DNA of 64,000 nt. Source: an uncultured Solirubrobacterales bacterium. Lineage in GTDB: Bacteria > Actinomycetota > Thermoleophilia > Solirubrobacterales > Solirubrobacteraceae. Under the pieces are notes generated by a model that did not search any database, had not been told where the DNA came from, and saw only the letters and a list, made by a program, of their open reading frames with translations. The translations under genes were made by a program, and so were the position numbers. The DNA lies in NCBI GenBank assembly GCA_963844475.1, contig CAWJOL010000005.1, forward strand, positions 40,805-104,804, in the 5' to 3' direction. Below, one piece after another: positions 38,085 to 42,937 of this stretch (position 1 is the stretch's first letter; every line of letters starts with the position of its first letter).

Positions 38085-39581
38085 CTAGTCGGCCTCCACC
38101 ACCACCGCGTCACCGCCGCGGCGCGAGTCGCCGGCGCCCCAAAAGCGCCCGGCGCGGTCCTGCTCCACGGCCTGGACCCCGCCGAAGAACAGGTTGCGGT
38201 CGCGAAAGCGGCCGATTGCGCGGCCTGAGCCTTCGAGCTCGGTCGTGTCGATTCCCGGCTCGGTGTAGACCACCCCATCCTCGGAGTGCAGGCGCGGCGC
38301 CTGTACTGCATCGGGGGCGCGCAGCCCATCGTCGATCACGCGGATGATCGTCTGCATGATGGCCGAGCGGATCCGGTTCGAGCCCGCGCTGCCAAGCACG
38401 AGCTCAGGGCGTCCATCGTCCAGGACGACGGTTGGCGCCATCATGCTGGGTAGGCGCCGGCCCGGGGCGAAGCGATGAAAGCCGAGCGGATTCAGGTCCT
38501 GCTCACCGAGCATGTTGTTCAGGTGAACACCGGTCTCGGGCACGATCACCCCGGAGCACGACCCGTTCGAGCAGGTAACCGAACAGGCCTCGCCGTCCCG
38601 GTCGATCACCGCGATGTGCGTCGTCGACCCCAGTCCGCCACCGCCGTGGAGAAAGCGGGCCATGAACTCCGGATCAGCCAACCCATCCAGGAATTCCGGC
38701 GTGCGCTCGGCCTGCGTGCGCTCCATCACCTCGACGATCTGCTCGCTCCGGGGCGGCGGCGGGTCGGCATCGAGCAGCCCGAGCGCGCGCGCGATGAGAA
38801 TCCCACCCGCCGACGGCGGGGGATTGGTCAGGACGTCCCGTCCGCGGTAGCGGACCTGCACCGGCGCGCGGTCGACGACCCGGTACTGAGCCAGGTCGGC
38901 TCGCGTCAGCAGTCCACCCCGCGCCAGCACCCAGTCGGTGATGGCCGCCGCGATGTCGCCGGCGTAGAACGGTGCGGCCCCGTCTGCCGCCAGCCGCTCC
39001 AATGCGTCAGCCAGCTGCGGTTGGCGCAGCGTCTCCCCGGCTTTGAGCAGCCTTCCCCCGGGCGCGAACAGCGCGGTCGCCTCGGGCGTCGAGGTCACGA
39101 TCGCGCCGAGGATCTCGAGCAGGTAGGCCTGCTGCAGCGTGAGCTCTACACCGTCGCGGGCCAGGCCGGCCGCCTGCCGGGCCAGGTCGGCCAGTGGCAC
39201 CCGCCCGAAGCGCTCGGCGGCCTCGCACAGGCCGGCGGGTACACCGTAGGTCCCGACTGACGCCGAACCGATGTTGAACACCTGGACCGCATCGCCGAAG
39301 GAGACGTCGACCGGAATCAGCTCGGCCCTGGCACTCGCGGCGACGCCGCGCCCGGGGGCTTCGACGAAGAAGTCGAGCAGCACCGGCGCTTGACCGGGAA
39401 CCACGACCAGCATGTAGCCGCCGGCGCCCAGACCGGTCAGCAGCGGCTCGCAGACGAACGACGTCAGCATCGCGGCCAGCGCGGCGTCGACCGCGTTTCC
39501 GCCCGCGCGCAGGACCTCCGCGCCCGCCCGTGCCGACAGCGGATGGCCGGCCGCGATCACCCCAAGTTGGGGCTTGGTCAC
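38085..39581 (-). CDS. Gamma-glutamyltransferase family protein
   Basis: GGNAVDAA, GSTTHIAVID nucleophile, LNNMLGE, PSMMAP, GSAGSNRI. Confidence 0.92.
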   Translation of the reverse strand: MTKPQLGVIAAGHPLSARAGAEVLRAGGNAVDAALAAMLTSFVCEPLLTGLGAGGYMLVVVPGQAPVLLDFFVEAPGRGVAASARAELIPVDVSFGDAVQVFNIGSASVGTYGVPAGLCEAAERFGRVPLADLARQAAGLARDGVELTLQQAYLLEILGAIVTSTPEATALFAPGGRLLKAGETLRQPQLADALERLAADGAAPFYAGDIAAAITDWVLARGGLLTRADLAQYRVVDRAPVQVRYRGRDVLTNPPPSAGGILIARALGLLDADPPPPRSEQIVEVMERTQAERTPEFLDGLADPEFMARFLHGGGGLGSTTHIAVIDRDGEACSVTCSNGSCSGVIVPETGVHLNNMLGEQDLNPLGFHRFAPGRRLPSMMAPTVVLDDGRPELVLGSAGSNRIRSAIMQTIIRVIDDGLRAPDAVQAPRLHSEDGVVYTEPGIDTTELEGSGRAIGRFRDRNLFFGGVQAVEQDRAGRFWGAGDSRRGGDAVVVEAD

Positions 39582-39589
39582 GGTGGCGG

Positions 39590-41074
39590 CTATCGCCTGG
39601 GCATGAACTCGGGTACGTCCAGCTCCGTCGCCGAGGCCGTTTGACGTTCCCGGATACGGCTGACCCGCGGCTCGCCGCGTGGTTCGCGCAACGACGGGCG
39701 TAGCTCGTCGCGGCGGCTGATCGCTTCGGACGGGCGCTCGGCCGGACGGCGCTGGCGGCGTGCGTCGCCATAGCCGGTGGCCACGACGGTTACCCACACC
39801 TGGTCCTCGAGCTTGTCGTCGACCATCGCGCCGAAGATGATGTTGGCATCGGGATGCGCGGCCTCGGCGACGGCCTTCGCACACTCGTTGACCTCCCACA
39901 GGGACATATCGCGCCCGCCGGTGATCGAGAGCAGGATCGACCGTGCGCCCTCCATGCTGGTCTCCAGCAGCGGCGACGACACCGCCTGTTCAGCGGCGTC
40001 GAGCGCACGGCGTTCGCCGGCTCCCATGCCGATGCCCAGCAGTGCATTGCCCGCCTCGGACATGATCGTGCGCACATCCGCGAAGTCGAGGTTGATCAGC
40101 CCCGGCAAGGTCACCAGGTCCGAGATTCCCTGAACTCCCTGACGCAGCACGTCATCGGCCACGCGGAAGGCCTCGACCATCGAGGTGTTGCGATCGAGCA
40201 CCGACAGCAACCGGTTGTTCGGCACCACGATCAGTGTGTCGACCTCGGCGGCCAGCGCGTCGATGCCGGCCTCGGCCTGCTCGCGGCGCCGTGAGCCCTC
40301 GAACTGGAACGGCCGAGTGACGATGCCGACGGTCAGCGCCCCCAGCTCGCGAGCGATCTGGGCCACGATCGGAGCCGCCCCGGTCCCCGTACCGCCACCG
40401 GCGCCGGCGGCGATGAACACCATGTCCGAGCCACGCAACAACGCTTTGATCCGGTCGTGTTCGTGGCGGGCCGCCTCGCGCCCAAGGTTGGGGTCCGAAC
40501 CGGAGCCCAAGCCCCGGGTGATCGATTCACCGATGTGCAGGGTCTCGTTGGCGGCCGACTGCTGTAGTGACTGCAGGTCGGTATTGATGGCGAGGAACTC
40601 GACGCCCTCGATCTCAGCTTCGACCATCCGGTTGACGGCATTGACCCCTGCGCCGCCGACGCCGACGACGCGCAGCACCGGCGTGCCCACCGGCCGCGGA
40701 GCGGCAAAGGCATCGTCGGCACGCTGTGGACGGGCGTAGACGTCGGGCTCGACCGCGGCAGCGCGCTCGCTCGGACGGGCCATCACGTTCTCCGGAATGT
40801 CAGAGGAGAAGGCGTGGCGCAGGCGCTCCTGCGGCGAGGGGATCTTCGGCTCGGGCTCGGCGATCGGCGCCGGAGCGTCAAATCCCGGGTGCGGACGCCG
40901 GTTCGAGGCGCCGGCCGCGGGTTCGGTTGCGGCCTTCTGCGCGCGCTTTGGCGGCGCTGCCTTCGGCTGGGCCTCAGCCGGCGTCTCAGCCTCGGGACCG
41001 CTGTCCTCGGCCGTCTTGCGGAACAGGGCCGCCAGCGGCCCTTCACGCATGCTCGCGCGCTTACCGGTGGGCAT
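39590..41074 (-). CDS. ftsZ: FtsZ with ~130-aa N-terminal extension
   Basis: VVGVGGAGVNAV, GGGTGTG, INLDFADV, C-terminal LDVPEF; AAGGAGG SD. Confidence 0.95.
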   Translation of the reverse strand: MPTGKRASMREGPLAALFRKTAEDSGPEAETPAEAQPKAAPPKRAQKAATEPAAGASNRRPHPGFDAPAPIAEPEPKIPSPQERLRHAFSSDIPENVMARPSERAAAVEPDVYARPQRADDAFAAPRPVGTPVLRVVGVGGAGVNAVNRMVEAEIEGVEFLAINTDLQSLQQSAANETLHIGESITRGLGSGSDPNLGREAARHEHDRIKALLRGSDMVFIAAGAGGGTGTGAAPIVAQIARELGALTVGIVTRPFQFEGSRRREQAEAGIDALAAEVDTLIVVPNNRLLSVLDRNTSMVEAFRVADDVLRQGVQGISDLVTLPGLINLDFADVRTIMSEAGNALLGIGMGAGERRALDAAEQAVSSPLLETSMEGARSILLSITGGRDMSLWEVNECAKAVAEAAHPDANIIFGAMVDDKLEDQVWVTVVATGYGDARRQRRPAERPSEAISRRDELRPSLREPRGEPRVSRIRERQTASATELDVPEFMPRR

Positions 41075-41828
41075 TTGAGAGAACCTCCTTCGCGAGCTGC
41101 CTGTAGGCGAGTGCGGCCAGACCGTCGGGATCGTACTTCAGCACGGACATTCCTTTCACAGGGGCCTCGGCAAAGCGCACGGTCCGGCGGATCCTCGAGG
41201 CAAAAACCCGGTCGCCGAAGTTCTCCTCCAGCAGTTCGATCGCCTCCTTGGCATGCAACGTCCGCGTGTCGACGAGCGTCGGCAGGATGCCCTCGATCTC
41301 GACATCGGGATTCAGGTTCTCGCGGATCATGGCGAGCGTGTTCTGCAGCTGGATCAGACCGCGCATCGACAGATACTCGCACTGCACGGGGACGATTACC
41401 TTATGGGCCGCGGTCAGCGCGTTGATTGTGAGCAGCCCGAGGCTCGGCGGCGTGTCGATGAAGACGAAGTCGTAGTCCTCGGCGACCTCCGCCAGCGCCT
41501 TCTTCAGGTTGCGCTCGCGACCGATCATCGACGCCATCGCCATCTCCGCTCCGGCCAGGTCGATCGACGAGCAGGCGACGTCGATCTCACGCTTGCGGAT
41601 CACCTCGCGGATCGAGATCCGGTGCACGAGCACGTCGTACATCGATTTGTCCAGCGTGTCAGGGTCGATGCCCTGCGACATCGTCAGGTTGCCCTGAGGG
41701 TCCATATCGACGCACAGCACGCGGTGGCCCTCCTCGGCGAACGCGACGGCGAGGTTCAGCGTAGTCGTGGTCTTGGCGACGCCGCCCTTCTGGTTGGCGA
41801 ACGCGATCACCTTGAGGGTGGAACTCAC
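41061..41828 (-). CDS. ParA/Soj-family ATPase
   Basis: NQKGGVAKTTT, DMDPQGN, IDTPPSLG, VPVQCE, FAEAP. Confidence 0.95.
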   Translation of the reverse strand: MSSTLKVIAFANQKGGVAKTTTTLNLAVAFAEEGHRVLCVDMDPQGNLTMSQGIDPDTLDKSMYDVLVHRISIREVIRKREIDVACSSIDLAGAEMAMASMIGRERNLKKALAEVAEDYDFVFIDTPPSLGLLTINALTAAHKVIVPVQCEYLSMRGLIQLQNTLAMIRENLNPDVEIEGILPTLVDTRTLHAKEAIELLEENFGDRVFASRIRRTVRFAEAPVKGMSVLKYDPDGLAALAYRQLAKEVLSNAHR

Positions 41829-41983: not shown

Positions 41984-42937
41984 GTGCACGAGATTCTCGA
42001 CCGCCGTCTGATCTTCGTGACCGGCAAGGGCGGGGTCGGCAAGTCGACCGTGGCCACCGCGCTCGGGCTACTGGCGGCGCGGGCGGGTCTGCGCACGATC
42101 GTCGCCGAGCTGGCGAGCCAGGAACGGGTGCAACGCGCGTTCGACCGCGAGGTCGAGCCGTTTGAAGAGGTCGAGCTCGCGCCGGGCCTGTTCACCATCT
42201 CGATCGACCCGCAGCACGCGATGGAGGAATACCTGCGGCTCAAGACCGGCGCGCTCGGGCACATGCTGGCCTCGAGCAAGCTGTTCGGCGCCTTTGCGAT
42301 GGCCACTCCGGGGATGCGAGAGCTGCTCAGCATCGGGAAGGTGTGGGAGCTGGCCCAGCTGCAACGACGTACGAGCGGGGCCGCCCCCTATGACCTGGTG
42401 ATCGTCGACGCACCGGCCACGGGGCACGGCGTCGGGATCCTGAAAACGCCGCGCACGTTTGCCGAGATCGCCCGCGTCGGACCGATCGCCCACCAGGGCC
42501 GCATCATCGCGGACACTCTCGACGATCACGATTTCACGGCGGTCGTGGCGGTGGCCACGGCCGAGGAGATGCCCGTCAACGAGACCCTGGCGATCAAGGA
42601 CGAACTGGAGCGAGAGGGGCTGGAGCTCGCTGCGGTGATCGTCAACGCGCTGTACCCGTCGCGCTTCGGTCCGCGCGATCAGCGCAAGCTGGAGAAGGCG
42701 CTGAGCGACATCCAGGCCTCGCCCAGCCGGGGGGCGATCCGGGCCGCGCTGTCGGAGAGCGCCCGGGCAGCCGCGCAGCGCGAGCAACAGGACCGCCTGA
42801 GCGACGGCCTGCAGATGGAACTGGTGCAGCTGCCCTACCTGTTCGCCGACCAGGTCGGTCGCGAGCAGCTCGAGCAGTTGGCCGACGCGCTAGAGCTGGG
42901 GCTCGCCGAGCGCTCTGCGGCGTCACTGCCGGGCTGA
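41984..42937 (+). CDS. ArsA/Get3-family ATPase (Rv3679-like)
   Basis: VTGKGGVGKST, VDAPATGHG, AEEMPVNET. Confidence 0.92.
   Translation: MHEILDRRLIFVTGKGGVGKSTVATALGLLAARAGLRTIVAELASQERVQRAFDREVEPFEEVELAPGLFTISIDPQHAMEEYLRLKTGALGHMLASSKLFGAFAMATPGMRELLSIGKVWELAQLQRRTSGAAPYDLVIVDAPATGHGVGILKTPRTFAEIARVGPIAHQGRIIADTLDDHDFTAVVAVATAEEMPVNETLAIKDELEREGLELAAVIVNALYPSRFGPRDQRKLEKALSDIQASPSRGAIRAALSESARAAAQREQQDRLSDGLQMELVQLPYLFADQVGREQLEQLADALELGLAERSAASLPG

Follow-up and report, generated by a model that had tools for sequence, protein, structure and literature searches.

Why should an FtsZ be encoded directly behind a ParA-type ATPase, and why should it begin with a short, basic peptide of the kind carried by the partners of such ATPases? 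This question is raised by a pair of genes, here called parA (encoding ParA2) and ftsZ2, in a 64,000-nucleotide stretch of DNA (the window) from an uncultured Solirubrobacterales soil bacterium of the class Thermoleophilia (contig CAWJOL010000005.1 of assembly GCA_963844475.1, positions 40,805 to 104,804 of the forward strand). The answer that we favour, with somewhat better than even confidence, is that the two genes encode a positioning module of the ParA type, with an FtsZ polymer as its cargo. In effect, FtsZ2 has probably become the thing that ParA2 holds and places.

The two genes are tightly joined. Their open reading frames (ORFs), whose coordinates are given in Table 1, have positions 41061-41074 in common, which is the 14-nucleotide overlap reported in the initial annotation of this DNA. 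The ATG of ftsZ2 is at 41074, with a perfect AAGGAGG 9 nucleotides ahead of it, inside parA. The same annotation placed no dcw, parB or scpAB genes nearby, and this agrees with the rest of the genome: ParB_N and the Soj-ParB pair are found on contig C2, while murB, ftsQ and ftsZ are on contig C4, as is scpA, which stands behind trpS and has no ParA ahead of it.

FtsZ2 itself consists of MPTGKRASMREGPLAALFRKT, then about 110 residues rich in Pro, Ala and Glu, and then the core; its terminal residues are DVPEFMPRR. Pfam recognizes the Tubulin/FtsZ GTPase domain at residues 135-293 (1.8e-45) and FtsZ_C at 342-434 (7.9e-33), and the ftsZ equivalog TIGR00065 matches residues 131-442 with 423.1 bits, for a cut-off of 295.2. 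The defining motifs of FtsZ are the GGGTGTG loop, the NxDxxD (T7) loop and the C-terminal D[IV]PxF peptide. In alignment A1, G224-G232 (GGGTGTG), N328, D330, D333, V487, P488, E489 and F490 of FtsZ2 are invariant, and both the GGGTGTG and the NLDFADV loops are invariant among relatives. Thus, an intact GTPase core with its C-terminal peptide, and an N-terminal peptide followed by a long Pro/Ala-rich linker, are present as first described. The linker changes in length and sequence between relatives, down to about 30-45 residues in family f6. Within it lies a second motif, IPSPQERLRHAFSSDIPE, of which P79, P81 and E83-H87 are invariant in A1 and which is lost in the short-linker forms of f6. In the Solirubrobacterales, the linker motif IPSPQERLRHAFSxDIPEN and, after it, DVYAR (residues 111-115) are invariant, and the short linkers of f6 carry PAWGREAP instead. 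Likewise, LREPxGEPRVSR is conserved at residues ~459-475 (39650-39700, minus strand), in a C-terminal linker that is otherwise variable.

This is not the only FtsZ of the organism. The source assembly, which has 6 contigs and is 75.6% complete, holds two ftsZ genes: the window copy and a 361-residue copy on contig C4, which follows murB- and ftsQ-like ORFs and terminates in DIPSFLRDR (FtsZ1). The window copy is outside the cluster of division and cell-wall genes (dcw), between parA and ggt; location in that cluster is common for ftsZ, but not obligatory. Two copies were likewise present in all 13 other Thermoleophilia genomes counted, and a single one in 34/34 genomes of other actinobacterial classes. 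The core of FtsZ2 is 59.6% identical to that of FtsZ1 and 58-64% identical to the FtsZ of other classes, and, in a FastTree phylogeny of FtsZ cores, the 17 FtsZ2 sequences group together as a clade (0.935) and do not nest within the FtsZ1 of the class. Consequently, as judged from the cores, the duplication is old, and the tree does not place the source of FtsZ2. The initial annotation had proposed a two-component division-site system. As FtsZ2 is a second paralogue, a simple system of this kind, working on the only Z-ring protein, has to be abandoned. SepF is present in the genome; no MinC was found in it, at 75.6% completeness.

The N-terminal peptide is a conserved part of FtsZ2. Across 25 relatives with 76-91% overall identity, residues K5-T21 do not vary, beside a linker that differs in length and sequence, and the codons of the peptide differ at synonymous sites between genomes. 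For these reasons the early start is accepted, and a true start near VLRVVGVGG, downstream of the peptide, is ruled out. K5, R6 and R10 lie within this invariant 17-mer, and a variable Pro/Ala linker follows it, which is the form of a short, positively charged partner peptide at an N-terminus. S8, behind two basic residues, is nearly invariant. Across the class the consensus can be written [KR][KRQ]x[SN][ML][KR][EDN][GS]xLxxLF, and in the source genome the peptide is carried by FtsZ2 only. In a search seeded with residues 1-134 of FtsZ2, 3,426 of the 6,917 candidates reached E<=1e-3. Of the 120 matches listed, which have 323-561 residues, all but one possess both FtsZ domains, the exception being the 323-residue protein, with Tubulin only. 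At the DNA level, a pattern for SMREGPLxxLFR occurred in 24 of the 401 genomes of a phylum-wide sample, once in each and always in Thermoleophilia, while the reversed control pattern gave 0. A class-wide search with the 135-residue N-terminus matched 63 of the 401, a figure that undercounts because the search is insensitive.

The peptide is inherited together with the ATPase gene. In the best 80 genome loci, titled Solirubrobacterales, Solirubrobacteraceae or simply Actinomycetota metagenome-assembled genomes (MAGs), FtsZ2 is 63-90% identical to that of the window, and parA stands directly upstream of ftsZ2 in 80/80 (two contig-end cuts), with ParA 82-98% identical; a bagA-like gene is kept in ~75 of these loci and ggt in ~73. 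The order belongs to Thermoleophilia, and in other families of the class (f2, f3, f5, f6 and f8) the parA-ftsZ2 pair is found in 16/16 loci, 15 of them with ggt. Here the peptide reads [KR][KRQ][AS]SMREGPL[AS][AED]LFR and the linkers are as short as 30-45 residues. Families f7, f9 and f10 do not match the strict pattern, yet the pair is present in 5/5 of their genomes, with variant peptides that include KKKSSLKNSGLADLFR, RRASMKEGALSNLFQ and DRPSMKDGLSELFRR. Complete pairs were recovered at 104 of 111 loci, and the two genes overlap in every one of the 104: by 14 nucleotides in 76, 4 in 16, 17 in four, 8 in three, 29 in two, and 11, 68 and 71 in one each, with starts picked by a script rule and at least one genome counted twice. 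The remainder comprise four loci with parA cut or lacking a start, and three in which the N-terminus is out of frame with the core. In these three (L086, L092 and L093), peptide and FtsZ core lie in different frames, most likely through frameshift errors of assembly in the linker, which is repetitive and GC-rich.

Which ParA, then, has been coupled to FtsZ? The window protein matches AAA_31 (1.6e-61) and also CbiA, and it carries the deviant Walker A motif NQKGGVAKTT, with the signature lysine, which is invariant in its orthologues. In alignment A2, of 37 ParA orthologues, K14, G15, G16, K19, T20, T21, D125-P128 and A220-P223 are invariant. It falls below the NCBIfam equivalog cut-offs of ParA_partition (123.8 versus 180), minD_bact (56.3 versus 212.9) and RepA (117.4 versus 348). 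Its identity to the genome's own Soj is 46%, and to the best matches in other actinobacterial classes 48-52%. These best matches are not beside parB, and scpA lies 0-1.2 kb downstream of them in seven loci. In an IQ-TREE phylogeny of 60 rows, the FtsZ2-linked ParAs (100/97), the ParB-linked Soj proteins (100/99) and the ParAs linked to a small protein or to scpA (94/98) form separate groups. By these comparisons, the FtsZ2-linked ParA is clearly not Soj. Its putative orthology with the parA2 group rests on identity, shared peptide and synteny, and the tree alone is no proof of it. In one Thermoleophilia family (locus L129) the gene order is parA-ftsZ2-scpA, and ftsZ2 fills the slot that the small gene has elsewhere. 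Among solved structures, sequence comparison puts 5if9, 4pfs and 5ihp closest (1e-62); they were deposited under the name 'cobyrinic acid a,c-diamide synthase', and we take them to be the mycobacterial homologue. Two more ParA-like genes were noticed in the genome, at C1:1004897-1005616 (minus strand; 38% identical to the window ParA) and C6:31304-31786 (plus strand).

In the other classes, the gene that follows the closest ParAs, often overlapping their stop, encodes a protein of 114-192 residues that starts (V/M)xRR[AV]SLPGADELFRxT. The family is very large (7,966 of the 8,000 candidates that were scored reach E<=1e-3), and its sources include Streptomyces, Kitasatospora, Kribbella, Fodinicola, Egicoccus, Nitriliruptorales and Mycobacteriales. 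Its members are labelled 'hypothetical', in one case 'Ribbon-helix-helix protein, CopG family', and in some 'cobyrinic acid a,c-diamide synthase', an apparent mislabel. Pfam reported no family on four of them, even at E<=1. All share one build: an invariant tail, a linker whose length varies greatly and a conserved domain of ~70 residues. A structural model has pLDDT (predicted local distance difference test) values of 84-95 over residues 50-114, where helices 59-76 and 82-103 follow an extended KITVY segment. In a VIA-align comparison, nearly all of the 50 best rows were ribbon-helix-helix (RHH) proteins (TraM, CopA, PutA, omega, ParD, Arc, ParG and the pCXC100 centromere binder), with Z values of 3.5-6.4. 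The model is thus suggestive, not conclusive, of an RHH-like body. Examples of the small gene, after parA2 and before scpA, are L144:2328-2672 and L145:2256-2831, and proteins P0121-P0362 represent the family. In one protein, P0256 (354 residues), ParA domains and small-protein sequence form one continuous chain, and in family f22 (L139, L140 and L143) the ParA frame is open for more than 200 nucleotides past the start of the small gene, which may reflect a fusion, an overlap or a sequencing error. In a search for longer proteins, the 120 matches listed comprised longer-linker members and P0256, with no further body types bearing the peptide.

The tail of this small protein and the N-terminus of FtsZ2 are the same motif. 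The two proteins also follow one plan: a peptide that is first basic and then hydrophobic, a disordered linker whose length varies, and the body. In a joint alignment the two are in register with a gap of 1-2 residues: KRASMREGPLAALFRKT in this FtsZ2, DRPSMKD-GLSELFRRT in family f7 and RRASLP--GADELFRTT in the small protein, so that the f7 form bridges the other two. A profile of 80 non-redundant small-protein tails was run against the first 40 residues of 37 FtsZ2 proteins and 13,528 ORFs of the genome. Four of the 37 FtsZ2 N-termini outscored the entire background, the window FtsZ2 ranked 7th (itself counted), and for 32 of the 37 there were at most 20 background N-termini at or above their score. 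In the reverse direction, with a profile of FtsZ2 tails, each of the 80 small-protein tails obtained a score, which for 48 was higher than that of any non-self N-terminus in the background. The distribution of the two bodies is complementary. Of 56 genomes from other classes, 16 (13 published and 3 unpublished) yielded the small protein, each time adjoining, by coordinates, the best ParA match, and none of the Thermoleophilia did (0/5 and 0/51). Behind the ParA gene, other classes have either the small gene or scpA itself, and their FtsZ is single. Its full-length profile found nothing in the source genome (best E 0.31). Among the genomes surveyed, the small protein and a peptide-bearing FtsZ never occur together.

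The peptide is, therefore, read as that of a ParA partner, because its association with the ParA persists although the body that it heads switches from RHH-like to FtsZ. A homologous tail, reciprocal profiles and mutual exclusion together constitute comparative evidence for a swap of bodies. As in other partner genes, ftsZ2 is encoded beside its ATPase and co-inherited with it, overlapping it in 104/104 pairs, and a homologous peptide follows the related ParA elsewhere. The proposal of the initial annotation that FtsZ carries, by fusion, the partner peptide of its neighbouring ParA is thus supported, and the peptide is best explained as the presumptive partner peptide of this ParA lineage, moved onto FtsZ. 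Its assignment to the LGRGLxAL type of ParB is not supported: GMGRGLAAIL of the genome's own ParB resembles SMREGPLAALF by eye only, and neither the FtsZ2 nor the small-protein peptide profile reported a match on this ParB. An origin from ScpA, suggested by the motif FEGPLDLLL, was dropped, as the genome's own ScpA reads FAGPFDLLLTLI and the small-protein tail matched better.

Several observations weigh against this reading. The likeness of the peptides requires a gap of 1-2 residues and amounts to just 3-15 bits, low absolute scores that are due to the motif being short and gapped. With the forward profile, five of the 37 FtsZ2 peptides have poor scores or none, and, when the small-protein tail profile was run against whole stop-to-stop ORFs, the FtsZ2 frame was not among the best 21 rows. 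In the ParA tree, the three groups join at a near-zero branch, and the FtsZ2-linked ParAs are not inside the RHH-linked group. As for the small protein, its VIA-align Z values are in the middling range, and Foldseek returned nothing for its model at E<=0.001 (best E 1.4). Synteny is kept on both sides of the pair, by the bagA-like gene and ggt, so that part of the linkage seen in close relatives is gene order that they have inherited. Finally, most of the genomes are MAGs, and the source genome itself is 75.6% complete.

How could such a pair work? The ancestor would have been a pair similar to those of type Ib, in which ParA2 acted with a DNA-binding RHH partner whose N-terminal tail docked on the ATP-bound ParA2 dimer and activated it. 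At the base of Thermoleophilia, a copy of ftsZ would have taken the place of the RHH body, while tail and linker were retained. FtsZ2 filaments would then display many ParA2-binding tails on flexible arms, and could be tethered to, moved by or confined by nucleoid-bound ParA2-ATP, whose hydrolysis the filaments would trigger, as in other ParA cargoes. The GTPase core and C-terminal peptide of FtsZ2 may allow it to co-assemble with the dcw FtsZ or to seed it, and to bind the same anchor (SepF is present). This would tie the choice of the division site to the nucleoid. The full form of this proposal is held tentatively, at a little under even confidence: that an FtsZ filament with activating tails is the nucleoid cargo of ParA2, so that the division site would be read straight from the ParA2 pattern, without an adaptor, and, as a corollary, that the small RHH-like protein with the RR[AV]SLPGADELFR tail would be the missing activator of the 'orphan' ParA2/PldP of many Actinomycetota, including Streptomyces.

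The same contact might also have the opposite sign. ParA2 could act in the manner of MipZ or of nucleoid occlusion, with its dimer gripping the FtsZ2 tail and blocking or capping assembly, so that a ring would form only where ParA2 is scarce. The linkage and the peptide fit this alternative equally well. Pfam MipZ does match the window ParA, although partially (52 bits, profile positions 2-137 of 262), and ParAs of the PldP/Rv1708 type are discussed as spatial regulators of the Z-ring in the accessible text of PMC10482377, where overexpression of MSMEG_3743 leads to filamentation. Nevertheless, a build of peptide, linker and body is that of activating partners and cargoes, as described in the accessible part of PMC7993993. 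An inhibitory ParA2 is, on this balance, unlikely. A further point against it is that MipZ acts on FtsZ with no known peptide handle and depends on ParB.

Alternatively, the peptide could serve a partner other than ParA, such as SMC-ScpAB, the membrane, a kinase reading an RRxS site or a protease, with parA a mere operon neighbour. For instance, scpA is found close to this ParA in other classes and follows ftsZ2 immediately in L129, Rv1708 binds ScpA (accessible text of PMC10482377), and S8 is nearly invariant behind two basic residues. Of the neighbours, however, ParA alone accompanies the peptide on either body: in this genome scpA belongs to a different contig, and the bagA-like gene and ggt are absent beside the small protein. 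Moreover, the overlap of stop and start in 104/104 complete pairs fits two proteins made in step, and a basic N-terminal peptide on the gene after ParA is a known mark of a partner, according to the portion of PMC7993993 available. We therefore regard a non-ParA partner as rather improbable.

It is still less probable that FtsZ2 is no division protein at all, and instead forms a cytomotive filament that moves DNA or another cargo with ParA2, leaving division to the dcw FtsZ alone. A complete dcw-linked FtsZ is indeed present in every Thermoleophilia genome examined, and the ancestral partner was probably DNA-binding. Nonetheless, FtsZ2 scores as an FtsZ equivalog (423 bits), retains a C-terminal D[VI]PxF peptide similar to the one in the dcw copy, and has a strongly constrained core, as its 63-90% identity over the 80 Solirubrobacterales loci indicates. 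Lastly, that the N-terminus is kept by a nucleic-acid constraint (translational coupling or RNA structure), the likeness to the small protein being chance, is scarcely credible, for although the first four ftsZ2 codons overlap parA and the ribosome-binding site is inside it, the overlap is 4-17 nucleotides in most loci versus a conserved stretch of ~60, the 24 matched DNA strings vary at third positions while encoding the same residues, and the two peptide profiles recognize each other's sets well above background.

The positioning module favoured here can be compared with known systems, of which PomXYZ of Myxococcus xanthus is similar in its logic: a ParA/MinD-type ATPase on the nucleoid (PomZ), a peptide-bearing polymer partner, and placement of FtsZ as the output. 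PomX combines a conserved, positively charged N-terminal peptide, an Ala/Pro-rich unstructured region and a polymer-forming body (both points from the accessible sections of PMC7993993). In contrast, in that system, with PomX as a coiled-coil scaffold, recruitment of FtsZ is indirect, by way of PomY and PomZ, whereas here the polymer body is FtsZ itself, the peptide has another sequence, no PomX or PomY is present and a second FtsZ exists.

In the type Ib pairs ParF-ParG (TP228) and delta-omega (pSM19035), a ParA is activated by the flexible N-terminal tail of its RHH partner. In other Actinomycetota, the small partner has the same order of tail, linker and RHH-like body, and its gene also follows that of the ParA. 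ParG and omega are among its structural matches, with just Z 3.8-4.7. A type Ib-like pair is the likely ancestral state of the ParA2 system. Unlike type Ib, the ParA2 pair is chromosomal and beside scpAB, with no centromere site known, and Thermoleophilia have FtsZ in place of the RHH body. A positively charged N-terminus of ParG is cited in PMC7993993, in its accessible portion.

By identity (48-52%), the closest ParA group is ParA2/PldP/Rv1708, which is likewise not ParB-linked and has scpA downstream. PldP sits at septa and influences the selection of division sites (PMC4255298, accessible text), and Rv1708 binds ScpA and ParB, while overexpressed MSMEG_3743, its homologue in M. smegmatis, produces filamentation (both from the accessible text of PMC10482377). 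In contrast to the window protein, these ParAs are described as orphans without an activator and have no FtsZ beside them, and the FtsZ2-linked ParAs are a separate clade. MipZ of Caulobacter is also a ParA-like ATPase, one that acts directly on FtsZ, and the Pfam MipZ match of the window ParA is partial. MipZ needs ParB and inhibits the sole FtsZ, which is not known to have a handle peptide, whereas here ParB is encoded elsewhere and FtsZ itself bears the handle. Finally, ParABS shares with this locus a short N-terminal peptide on the protein encoded after parA, but a Soj-ParB pair is encoded separately in the genome, the window ParA does not fall in the Soj clade, and the peptide profiles report no ParB. 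In a literature search that did not extend to subscription journals, no paper was found that deals with the small protein or, for Thermoleophilia, with an FtsZ that is a second copy or is coupled to ParA. A preprint on FtsZ paralogues covers Alphaproteobacteria only, in its accessible part (10.1101/2025.09.29.679267). What is new here is that the small RHH-like protein behind parA2 bears a homologous tail, together with the reciprocal profile tests and the mutual exclusion.

Table 1. Features of the parA-ftsZ2 locus and its neighbours (window positions).
Feature	Position	Strand	Basis or remark
parA2-type ATPase gene, 255 residues	41061..41828	minus	ORF call and AAA_31/CbiA domains
ftsZ2, second complete FtsZ paralogue, 494 residues	39590..41074	minus	Pfam and TIGR00065
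Shine-Dalgarno AAGGAGG of ftsZ2, within the 3' end of parA	41084..41090	minus	
N-terminal peptide MPTGKRASMREGPLAALFRKT, residues 1-21, proposed ParA2 docking/activating handle	41012..41074	minus	
Variable Pro/Ala/Glu-rich linker, residues 22-130	40685..41011	minus	
Second conserved linker motif IPSPQERLRHAFSSDIPE, residues 79-96, order-specific	40787..40840	minus	
FtsZ GTPase and C-terminal domains, residues 131-442	39749..40684	minus	TIGR00065 match
C-terminal peptide LDVPEFMPRR	39593..39622	minus	Same type as DIPSFLRDR of the dcw FtsZ
BagA/ArsA(Get3)-like ATPase, divergent from parA	41984-42937	plus	
Gamma-glutamyltranspeptidase (ggt), directly downstream of ftsZ2	38085-39899	minus	

Among the neighbours of the pair there is also uppP. 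The long ORF of ggt runs over the 3' end of ftsZ2, and its real start is probably near residue 100. The positions of the bagA-like gene and ggt are kept in most Solirubrobacterales loci, and that of ggt in 15/16 loci of other families.

To our knowledge, Actinobacteria are without Min and Noc, and the choice of the division site in them is an old open question. As far as we know, their second ParA (PldP, Rv1708, SCO1772) has been tied to septum placement with no known activator and no direct link to FtsZ. The Thermoleophilia would provide a natural experiment, in which one deep class wired that ParA to FtsZ through a handle of 20 residues, while the others bear the handle on an unnamed small protein that probably binds DNA. 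The activating peptide of a ParA partner would then be a portable module, which evolution can move onto a cytoskeletal polymer. If true, this would be the most direct coupling of a ParA to FtsZ that is known.

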